A stretch of DNA of 64,000 nucleotides from a virus (Duplodnaviria; Caudoviricetes), in IMG/VR virus record IMGVR_UViG_3300029955_000001; one strand, given 5' to 3'. The notes beneath the pieces are model-generated. The model saw only the letters and a list, made by a program, of their open reading frames with translations. It was not told where the DNA came from and did no database searches. The position numbers and the translations under genes were made by a program. Positions 34,064-57,351 of this stretch are shown in pieces; position 1 is the first letter of the stretch, and each line of letters begins with the position of its first letter.

Positions 34064-34260
34064 ATTATTACCACTTCATAACAGTGACGGTATCTCTCAA
34101 TATCAGAGTTCTTGTTGCTGATCCTTTACATCAGGATTCACTTCACAAGCTATCCGGACTTACCAGCCCTTGTATTTCTATTCTAGCAATTCACGCAAGA
34201 AGTGCCGGTACTGTAAATATTCATACTAGCTACATCATCAGCGTTCTTTGTAAAACCACA
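34064..34260 (-). ncRNA. TnpB omega-RNA (right-end RNA) with putative guide TGTTATGAAGTGGTAAT
   Basis: GCTTGTGAAGTGAA...CAGCAACAAGAAC typical of IS605/IS1341 3' ends; scaffold ends ...CGTCAC at 34084. Confidence 0.65.
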
Positions 34261-34587
34261 ATTCATACATTTAGCACAACAGCGGAACAGTCATTTAGCC
34301 AAATAAATTCTGGGTTTTGTTTTAGTAATACTAATTCATTAATTAAACCAAATACGGTAGGTTTATGCCCTAACTCATAAAGCTCTTTCCATCGTGCTAA
34401 GCCCCAGTTATAAATAAATCTGCTACATCCTGCAAATTGTTTAAATTGAGTTTCTTGTTGTTTAGTAGGAAATAAACGATACTTAAAAGCCTTATGAAAT
34501 GTTATTTATCCATTTAAGGAGATTTTGTTATTTGACATTCTTAATCTCCTTATTTAGAAGAACATATAGTAATTCTCATAACAGTGA
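34076..34587 (-). mobile_element. Degenerate IS200/IS605-family TnpB element bounded by a 12-bp direct repeat
   Basis: TCATAACAGTGA at 34076-34087 and 34576-34587 flanks a tnpB remnant plus its right-end RNA. Confidence 0.75.
34183..34538 (-). pseudogene. tnpB: tnpB remnant (N-terminal HTH joined to C-terminal zinc ribbon; large internal deletion; early in-frame TAA)
   Basis: MSNNKISLNG*ITFHKAFKYRLFPTKQQETQFKQFAGCSRFIYNWGL...WLNDCSAVVL, then in another frame KCMNCGFTKNADDVASMNI. Confidence 0.88.
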
Positions 34588-50547: not shown

Positions 50548-50635
50548 TATTCTGTGATAAAAAAAATAGTAACTATTAGGCTACTAATTTTTTTTATTTC
50601 AATTTAACGAGTATTCTCCGTGTTATGCTACTCAG

Positions 50636-51091
50636 TTAAATTGAAATAGGCAATTTACCGCTCAATATCCATGACACGATATCAACAGATAAGCAGTCTA
50701 TAATCTGTCGTGTAGCGCTCACAAAACGCTCGTTGTTAGCCGCTGATTTTGCTCGTAGATATTTCAGGTAATCTGGCGTGCTATAATGTCTGGTATGTGT
50801 TACTTGTTTACCACGATGTATTAACTCTATTAAAGATAATACATTAACTATCCCGTTAATAGTACGCGATATACAAAACCCCGTCGTAATACTACCTGGA
50901 TCTATTTTTACTTCTATTTCTTGTAATTGACAATCCTTTTGATCTAGATCAATTAATTGGATTACAAAAGGTTTTACCTTTATCACACGTGCTCTACCTC
51001 TTTCGAGTAATAAACGTGCTCTTTTACCAGTACACGGCATGAGTGGTAGTTTATTCTTATCGATTACAAATACAAATGGTTTACCTGACAT
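50636..51091 (-). pseudogene. iscB: Truncated IscB (PLMP/RRXRR domain + RuvC-I; no HNH or RuvC-II/III)
   Basis: FVIDKNKLPLMPC..KRARLLL..GRA...PFVIQL, KIDPGS.TTG, EL.HRG; about 151 aa from ATG 51091. Confidence 0.88.
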
Positions 51092-51099
51092 AATAATCT

Positions 51100-51328
51100 T
51101 TCTGTGATTTACATCACTGGTTACATTCCCCTCGACAATGTTAAAATAGCTTTTTACGTTATACACATTATCCCTTACTCTTAGGATTGTTTAATGTATA
51201 ACGACAGAGCTACAGACTGAGGAAGCATCTGTAGGTATCATGACTAAAATAACGTAGTACAATTAAGTACTGAGTCTGGTCAACTTAATACCTTACGGTA
51301 TCATCCTTTTAGGGATGGAGTAATTGAC
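51100..51328 (-). ncRNA. IscB omega-RNA (HEARO-type) scaffold
   Basis: GTCAATTAC...CCTAAAAGG...GTTGACCAGACTCAG...ACTACGTT...TAAACA...AACATTGTCGAGGG directly upstream of iscB. Confidence 0.85.
51268..51322. repeat. 55-bp exact repeat, copy 1 (omega-RNA 5' module)
   Basis: Identical to 57074-57128. Confidence 0.9.
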
Positions 51329-51495
51329 AGTTCTTGAGAATCTTCAGGTGCGTATGAAAATGCGCGTTTTTCAATAACGACTAATTTATAAATAAAATTT
51401 GTTACGTCGTCTTTATGTTTAAGTAAAAGTGCTTTTTCTTTTATTTGTTTAATAACATCTAGTATATTGCGCCCTATTATTTTTTCATCGCTCAC
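51301..51495 (-). CDS. Small hypothetical protein whose 3' end is supplied by the IscB element
   Basis: AAGGAG RBS; stop codon lies inside the omega-RNA. Confidence 0.6.
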   Translation of the reverse strand: MSDEKIIGRNILDVIKQIKEKALLLKHKDDVTNFIYKLVVIEKRAFSYAPEDSQELSITPSLKG

Positions 51496-51506
51496 AATTT
51501 TCTCCT

Positions 51507-52331
51507 TTATTTTAAGTCAAGTGGCACGCCTATTATTGGATCTTCTCCATGAAATATTACACCTACTCGGTTTACTACTTTATCGAAAATAGGCATCTCT
51601 AGTTCCAATATTCTTGATCTAGCCACTTGTAAATTTGAGTCTGTTCTTGCTTTATGTTTCTGTGGAAGTGAATCTAATTCTTCAGTAGAAAATAAACCAG
51701 CTATAACACGGCGCTGAATAAACGTGCCGCGTTTGAATGAAGATGGAAAATCATTCCAATTGACACCTTTTGCCATCAGCATATCTTGCATCTCTGCACC
51801 TGATTTTTTGTGCAATTGAGCTTGACTATAAAAAGCACTAGCTGCCATGCTAATACTATTTTTAGAAGCATCGCGTTCACGCCATAGGAAGTTATTTGTT
51901 GCTTCTTCTAACGTAGGGAAGTTACATGCTCTGGCGTCAAATGTAGGTAAGCGATCAGCAAAACCTGGCATTTGTTTTAACACTTCTCTGTAAAAGAAAA
52001 GTGTGGCTTGCGCAGCAAGATGAGAAGTCATTTTAGCTACTCTTCTATCAAACCAAATTTGATTCTTTAAACTATCAGAATACCACGTCAGAGTAATTTC
52101 ATCACTCTGCGTATACCCCATGATAGCATTGGTGTGGTCTACTAAATATTTAGTAGTATTAACCATAGCTCTAGTCATCCGTAAATCAAATGGGCGATCC
52201 ATTCCTTTTGTAAAACGACTGAAACCACGACCATCTAATCTTGCTACGATTGGTAGTAACGGGAAGAACCTACGATCAGATTCGTAGTCTTCATACATTT
52301 TCATACGATCGCCAAGTGCGTCTAAAGACAT
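51507..52331 (-). CDS. Thg1-like tRNA-His guanylyltransferase (3'-5' polymerase)
   Basis: RMK.YE, RLDGRGFS.FT, YTQSDEI, FDAR, F.WR..DA.KNS and KRGTF motifs. Confidence 0.92.
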   Translation of the reverse strand: MSLDALGDRMKMYEDYESDRRFFPLLPIVARLDGRGFSRFTKGMDRPFDLRMTRAMVNTTKYLVDHTNAIMGYTQSDEITLTWYSDSLKNQIWFDRRVAKMTSHLAAQATLFFYREVLKQMPGFADRLPTFDARACNFPTLEEATNNFLWRERDASKNSISMAASAFYSQAQLHKKSGAEMQDMLMAKGVNWNDFPSSFKRGTFIQRRVIAGLFSTEELDSLPQKHKARTDSNLQVARSRILELEMPIFDKVVNRVGVIFHGEDPIIGVPLDLK

Positions 52332-57054: not shown

Positions 57055-57134
57055 ATAACGTAGTATCTTTCGATACTGAGTCTGGTCAACTTAATACCTT
57101 ACGGTATCATCCTTTTAGGGATGGAGTAGTTGAT
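57055..57134 (-). ncRNA. Stand-alone 5' module of an IscB omega-RNA / element left end (no iscB)
   Basis: 80 nt homologous to 51249-51328, with a compensatory hairpin (AGTATC-GAAA-GATACT vs AGTAC-TTAATT-GTACT). Confidence 0.75.
57074..57128. repeat. 55-bp exact repeat, copy 2
   Basis: Identical to 51268-51322. Confidence 0.9.
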
Positions 57135-57351
57135 TAAATAAATAAGTTTGAAGACTATCCAATTCTTCGAGCATAATGTCTTCATCAAAACAAATGGATG
57201 ACAGGCTTGTAATGATGTCACCACGGCGTTTGTTTTCAGTCACCCATTCACTACCTACCTTAGCTTTGTACCATCCTTTAAACAAAGCTAAAAGAGTCGT
57301 GATGTCGCGTTGTTCGTGACTGACATATGGAGTTATAAACGGTACGCTCAT
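57115..57351 (-). CDS. Small hypothetical protein whose stop lies inside the omega-RNA copy
   Basis: AAGGA RBS; ends NQLLHP* within the repeat. Confidence 0.6.
   Translation of the reverse strand: MSVPFITPYVSHEQRDITTLLALFKGWYKAKVGSEWVTENKRRGDIITSLSSICFDEDIMLEELDSLQTYLFNQLLHP

Follow-up and report, generated by a model that had tools for sequence, protein, structure and literature searches.

Genome context and architecture of the locus

The stretch of DNA analysed here, in the following referred to as the window, comprises 64,000 nucleotides (IMG/VR record IMGVR_UViG_3300029955_000001) and originates from a ~288-kb phiKZ-like jumbo phage that is present in many peat samples. The major capsid protein of this phage displays 58.6% identity to that of Burkholderia phage FLC9 and 46% to that of Ralstonia phages RP12/RP31, and the phiKZ internal head protein (phiKZ_IP, recognized by Pfam) is encoded as well; both the phiKZ-type major capsid and the internal head proteins that characterize phiKZ-like phages (Chimalliviridae) are thus present. 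Direct reading of the genome covered ~85 kb of the 288 kb. Elsewhere in the same phage (L016:5613-7373) two acyl-carrier-like (PP-binding) genes are located near thymidylate synthase.

On the minus strand of the window a gene for Thg1, a small orphan gene, an omega-RNA and a truncated iscB follow each other. The features are listed below, a slash marking the boundary of the element:

51507..52331, minus strand: Thg1 tRNA-His guanylyltransferase (Pfam Thg1), co-oriented, ends 11 nt before ORF64
51301..51495, minus strand: ORF64, a 64-residue orphan phage gene with a strong RBS and no family match
51327..51346, minus strand: positional guide lying outside the element and formed by the final codons of the phage gene (boundary GT/CA, ISC termini rule)
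51095..51326, minus strand: omega-RNA (HEARO) scaffold, which is also the transposon end (Rfam RF02033, fold, alignment with relatives)
50792..51091, minus strand: iscB codons 1-100, PLMP and RuvC-I with the first catalytic Asp only (Pfam, NCBIfam, profile of full-length IscBs)
50636..50791, minus strand: 51 codons of non-IscB tail following the deletion point (DNA, protein and HMM tests without similarity to IscB)
50595..50648, no strand assigned: long hairpin over the stop of the ORF, 19 bp with 14-bp perfect arms and a 15-nt loop
50559..50594, no strand assigned: terminator-like hairpin flanked on either side by A/T runs, absent from the calls of the consensus scan

The nearest relatives found for the phage Thg1 are only 46-52% identical. 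The phage population is nearly clonal: in the most distant strain 18 of 10,001 bases differ, none of them inside the element, and zero SNPs in the element are expected by chance for strain L002 (P 0.29). All complete copies of the IscB element seen are identical, and a single allele is found in all contigs seen. Because the junction of the element is identical in five independent contigs and is spanned by one RNA-library contig, it does not represent an assembly artefact. Neither empty nor full-length alleles of the site were found in viral or metagenome collections, and a BLAST search of phages and plasmids gave only short plasmid matches over the RNA region.

The omega-RNA scaffold

The HEARO model of Rfam (RF02033) is matched over its full length (1-211 of 211) at 51120-51328 on the minus strand with 149.7 bits and an E-value of 1.7e-32, whereas the corresponding RNAs of six relatives score 115-144 bits. 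As in IscB/omega-RNA (ISC2) loci, this RNA lies directly upstream of the protein-coding frame, here one of 151 residues. A first-pass annotation made from the sequence alone had described the scaffold as well formed, with a GUCAA/UUGAC closing stem and two hairpins, and the full-length match as well as the predicted fold, in which the stem and both hairpins occur, bear this out. The terminal 3′ hairpin with its GUAA loop is located at 51104-51117 of the predicted fold and is present in the relatives as well, and a weak SD is found at 51098-51103, inside the scaffold span.

An RNA-library contig covers 51085-51309 at a depth of 2.5, which is no proof of expression. The RNA-library contigs are scattered, with depths of 2.5-17, and can neither rank genes nor demonstrate one transcript. 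Co-transcription of the omega-RNA with Thg1 is plausible.

The kept part of IscB

The ORF at 50636-51091 (minus strand) encodes 151 residues from its ATG, while gene callers start at a GTG at 51166, inside the omega-RNA, resulting in 176 residues. PLMP, IDPGS and ELIHRG are all present, in agreement with the first-pass annotation, and with them the PLMP and the RuvC-I aspartate of ISC2 proteins. Residues 7-100 match positions 1-89 of the 174 positions of Pfam RRXRR (E 3e-23). Alignment to the NCBIfam model guided_IscB, a comparison that had been proposed at the outset, gives a match to positions 1-90 of 314 with 84 bits, below the cut-off of 175. A profile built from the closest full-length IscBs aligns to residues 1-99, with no further match in any of the six frames; the homology ends at residues ~99-100.

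The break is located directly before the arginine-rich bridge helix, which is consequently missing. RuvC-II, HNH, RuvC-III and the TAM-interacting domain of IscB find no match in six frames, and only one of the four RuvC catalytic residues (those named in PMC13095665) remains. Judged from the protein sequence, RNA-guided DNA cleavage by the 151-residue product is excluded by the missing domains, and the earlier statement that the frame diverges, stops and cannot form a normal nuclease holds. An assignment to IsrB fails as well: the complete split RuvC with bridge helix and the TAM domain of that ~350-residue protein are lacking.

In an AlphaFold model residues 1-100 adopt an IscB-like fold, while the pLDDT is below 50 for residues 115-151; for the tail this is weak evidence, as this part of the model had no alignment depth. 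Two of 41 conserved positions differ in the kept IscB part, no more than intact proteins show. The pairwise dN (~0.27) and dS (>1.2) to full-length relatives represent the time before truncation.

The tail and the downstream hairpins

A search of 1.84 billion protein representatives with the tail returned only the tail itself and a repeat artefact, P0220 (E 2.4e-5), a tandem-repeat ORF of 71 residues with a score added up from three repeats, which was taken as a chance match. An Atlas search yielded only RRXRR clusters (scores ≤0.90, ≤100 shared features) and was uninformative. Comparison with the IscB HMM revealed no significant similarity. A shifted or internally deleted iscB was rejected as source after comparison with the DNA of six relatives (3 of 200 shuffles for the best among six tests), as was the C-terminal half of the phage's own second iscB piece described below (46 of 500 shuffles for DNA, 319 of 1000 for protein; not significant). 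The codon score of the tail lies between real genes and off-frame DNA, and its frame is open for 51 codons, as is the case in 2.6-4% of random or off-frame stretches. From these comparisons the tail may derive from the 3′ end of an orphan gene, picked up when the deletion occurred.

The terminator-like hairpin directly follows the long hairpin over the stop codon. No second copy of the latter was found in the DNA examined. The second element end of the C-terminal half locus (subterminal hairpin, AT-3′) is not matched here; the hairpin at 50595-50648 is a different one.

The first-pass annotation had left the choice between a pseudogene and a miniature RNA-binding derivative. In the latter case PLMP, RuvC-I and the new tail would constitute a domesticated protein that binds the 3′ hairpin of the RNA and regulates or stabilises the transcript of the Thg1 operon. 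PLMP of IsrB indeed contacts the terminal hairpins and the SD (PMC9581776), both of which are kept here, the first 100 residues are predicted to be IscB-like and the tail is an open frame. In that structure, however, nearly every domain is in contact with the RNA, and PLMP lies packed onto RuvC and the TAM domain (PMC9581776), which are gone here; moreover, there is one allele and no family, and the tail is of low confidence with a codon use in the lowest 3.5% of the phage's genes. A domesticated mini-protein is thus very improbable. Of the two possibilities the pseudogene is supported and the mini-protein is not, given a tail unique among the 1.84 billion representatives, its low-confidence model and the lack of a family; if made at all, the 151-residue product would most likely be a non-functional fusion.

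Insertion site and guide

ISC elements begin with CA and insert at GT/GR, with targets such as GT/GA, GT/AA and GT/GG (PMC4810608). In the window the boundary GT/CA is found at 51327/51326, placing a 5′-CA terminus after a GT target half as in ISC2. It splits codon 57 of ORF64 behind its first base (T), so the native part of this gene consists of 56 codons and one T, and its last 8 residues and the TGA are contributed by the element; the frame terminates inside the omega-RNA, and the stop codon had been attributed correctly to the element by the earlier reading. Since a GT/GA or GT/AA target would make codon 57 TGA or TAA, insertion probably took place within the original stop codon of ORF64, and the element now provides a new one 8 residues later.

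The first-pass annotation had identified the guide as coding sequence from the 3′ end of 51301-51495. Its coding origin stands but its extent needs correction: the guide ends at 51327, 2 nt further 3′, because the ISC terminus rule puts the start of the element at 51326 (PMC4810608). IscB normally obtains its guide from flanking DNA and its transcription from a co-oriented upstream gene or promoter (bioRxiv 10.1101/2023.03.14.532601), and in the full-length relative L013 the upstream gene likewise stops inside its omega-RNA. For both reasons a guide that coincides with the 3′ end of a phage gene is the scar to be expected of an insertion and no sign of a new function.

No distinct guide target was found in the DNA examined. 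Database searches gave 11 exact 20-mer matches in genomes, one of them within a coding frame of a peat Terracidiphilus, and 119 or more viral 16-mer matches; none of those checked extends beyond the guide or shares DNA with the window, and they were rejected as targets.

Relatives and prevalence of truncated IscB

The nearest full-length relatives P0094, P0097 and P0093 (metagenomic, loci L011-L013) comprise 452-458 residues and are 66-72% identical over residues 1-100. A close full-length parent was not found; the best candidates (P0093 and P0094, 71-72%) do not come from the window phage. Among 92 short IscB homologues 46 end in non-homologous tails, with breakpoints scattered over profile positions 41-433. 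None of the 92 shares the tail of the window ORF, no relative with its break or its tail was found, and no family of such mini-proteins was detected. A comparable case is L009:5759-6435 on an unrelated phage-like contig, where an intact HEARO is followed by an iscB that breaks off at residue 144, just ahead of an NAD-dependent DNA ligase gene. As a separate observation, tnpB and iscB, both full-length, lie within 5 kb of each other on a 203-kb contig (L014:2088-7314), and another full-length iscB (P0107) is listed for a contig of this length.

Further OMEGA relics in the same phage

Three further nuclease-dead OMEGA relics, each broken differently, are found in the same phage, bringing the total to four:

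57055..57132, minus strand: fragment of a sibling omega-RNA, 78 nt from its 5′ end, at 91% identity (boundary AT/CA)
34200..34500, minus strand: tnpB with an internal deletion (HTH_OrfB_IS605, E 1.6e-19)
L016:10016-11015, same strand as the N-terminal half: iscB C-terminal half, residues ~156 to end

The omega-RNA fragment gives the stop codon of an ORF at 57115-57351. It contains a compensated hairpin variant, and the short open frame after it may be a gene 3′ end. In the tnpB relic, which adjoins the major capsid gene, the N-terminal HTH is joined by the deletion to a C-terminal zinc-finger scrap.

The iscB C-terminal half is located ~51 kb upstream of the N-terminal half, ~37 kb beyond the end of the window. 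Its HNH motifs are intact and the far element end is kept (hairpin, AT/AA boundary), while an omega-RNA is missing. A TGA precedes the C-terminal domain in all nine loci compared, which are identical but for one base. Expression as IscB from the phage RBS and ATG in front is contradicted because these are out of frame; the first in-frame ATG follows the RuvC-II Glu. Splitting of one iscB by inversion is refuted, as the ENA contig has the two halves on one strand. A block translocation is conceivable as the origin of both halves, and would need three breakpoints and a loss of ~165 nt.

The two pieces are complementary (residues 1-100 and ~156 to end) and are placed in the same region of the tree, near P0094/P0097, at similar distances to these proteins (~1.3 in both regions, relative to the P0094-P0097 distance). 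With the far element end retained at the C-terminal half, they could be imagined to be expressed separately and to assemble on the omega-RNA into a split IscB. Such an enzyme is extremely unlikely because the halves together miss ~55 residues including the arginine-rich bridge helix; they also carry the nonsense codon and the out-of-frame start described above, and the tree placement does not require a single parent.

A role of the omega-RNA alone has to be considered as well. The element would then keep its RNA for an intact IscB provided in trans by a sister phage or the host, which would cut element-free competitors, and the ORF would be irrelevant. The omega-RNA is intact, the second omega-RNA 5′ end has its compensated hairpin, an RNA-library contig (although no proof of expression) lies over the scaffold, and protein-less IS605 derivatives with RNAs that would act in trans have been discussed for TnpB (10.1101/2023.03.14.532601). 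Against this, the searches yielded no close full-length IscB, the one further iscB piece detected in the genome is broken and the second RNA copy is without two thirds of the scaffold. Furthermore, phages that form a nucleus are selective in the proteins they import (PMC12908238), and this would be an obstacle for a host enzyme if a nucleus is formed. A guide-only element is therefore quite improbable. Taken together, it is unlikely that the phage keeps the omega-RNA, perhaps with a PLMP mini-protein, as a trans-acting guide against competitors or as a regulator of the Thg1 transcript.

Origin and fate of the element

Most likely the element is a young deletion relic, dead and pseudogene-like, of an ordinary known family. 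This reading follows from the single RuvC catalytic residue left and the orphan non-IscB tail, from the frequency of truncated IscBs with random tails (half of the short homologues, as well as L009), from the three other dead OMEGA pieces in the same genome, one of them with a nonsense codon, and from a guide without a distinct target in the DNA examined and with database matches that do not extend.

A non-autonomous ISC2 element (IS200/IS605 family, iscB plus omega-RNA) would have inserted in co-orientation at the end of a small gene in the Thg1 unit. Insertion into a stop codon would have been nearly harmless, adding 8 residues. Intact IscB is known to maintain and spread its element by cleaving sites that lack it (10.1101/2023.03.14.532601); here the intact protein with its RNA would have attacked the unoccupied site in sister phages and the element would thus have spread. 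With fixation of the element no target would have been left for the nuclease, which would then have been lost. A deletion took everything after codon ~100, with the bridge helix, RuvC-II/III, HNH and the TAM-binding domain and apparently also the far element end, and fused the IscB stump to unrelated DNA. The omega-RNA would look perfect as the event is young, and its 5′ part may be further protected by carrying the stop codon of the upstream gene.

Some observations stand against a relic: decay is not directly visible in the kept parts (neither in the 41 conserved positions nor in the RNA, which outscores its relatives), the allele is fixed in all contigs seen, the tail is open for 51 codons and two omega-RNA 5′ ends survive. 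A neutral simulation with 0.01-0.03 substitutions per site yields 0.35-1.1 new stops in the C-terminal half, counted after subtraction of the terminal stop (one is seen), a 73-91% chance of no stop in the N-terminal half and a 4-33% chance of the 55 identical bases shared by the two RNA copies. Since neutral divergence of this extent fits the counts, the intact appearance of the omega-RNA needs no selection in this model.

As a relic the element matters little alone, and the jumbo-phage setting and the four relics in one genome are its only notable points. The latter show that IscB and TnpB elements repeatedly invade the genomes of phiKZ-like jumbo phages and die by deletion. An invade-fix-decay cycle is known for homing endonucleases, and the four relics fit it. 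The host context of OMEGA elements may be undescribed, as a literature search gave no paper on such elements in phiKZ-like jumbo phages. If the RNA were kept and served in trans, it would constitute a guide-only weapon in phage-phage competition or, alternatively, the locus would hold a first domesticated IscB fragment.

Comparison with known systems

Domesticated TnpBs are known to retain the complete fold for binding RNA and DNA and to fall into conserved clades, unlike the window locus with a quarter of the protein, one recognizable end and no clade. What is shared with the nuclease-dead domesticated TnpB (10.1101/2023.11.30.569447) is a kept RNA and a lost nuclease activity. The same holds for PATE-like protein-less IS605 derivatives, although PATEs keep both ends and the window locus only one. 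IsrB (DtIsrB, PDB code 8DMB) likewise lacks HNH and contains PLMP and RuvC-I, but it keeps the bridge helix, RuvC-II/III and the TAM domain (~350 residues) and nicks DNA, whereas the window ORF has none of these.

The nearest systems are ISC2 (PMC4810608) and IscB-omega-RNA complexes such as GstIscB, OgeuIscB (7UTN, 7XHT) and TbaIscB (9K30). P0094, P0097 and P0093 have the same N-terminal start and an intact HEARO, but keep all domains and occupy unrelated sites. In common with ISC2/IscB are the HEARO upstream of iscB, the 5′-CA after GT, the flanking guide, PLMP and RuvC-I, a co-oriented upstream gene and the lack of an adjacent tnpA. The window locus departs from ISC2/IscB in having lost the bridge helix, RuvC-II/III, HNH, the TAM-interacting domain and probably the second element end, in the 51 foreign residues appended to the stump, and in its location in a phiKZ-like jumbo phage.
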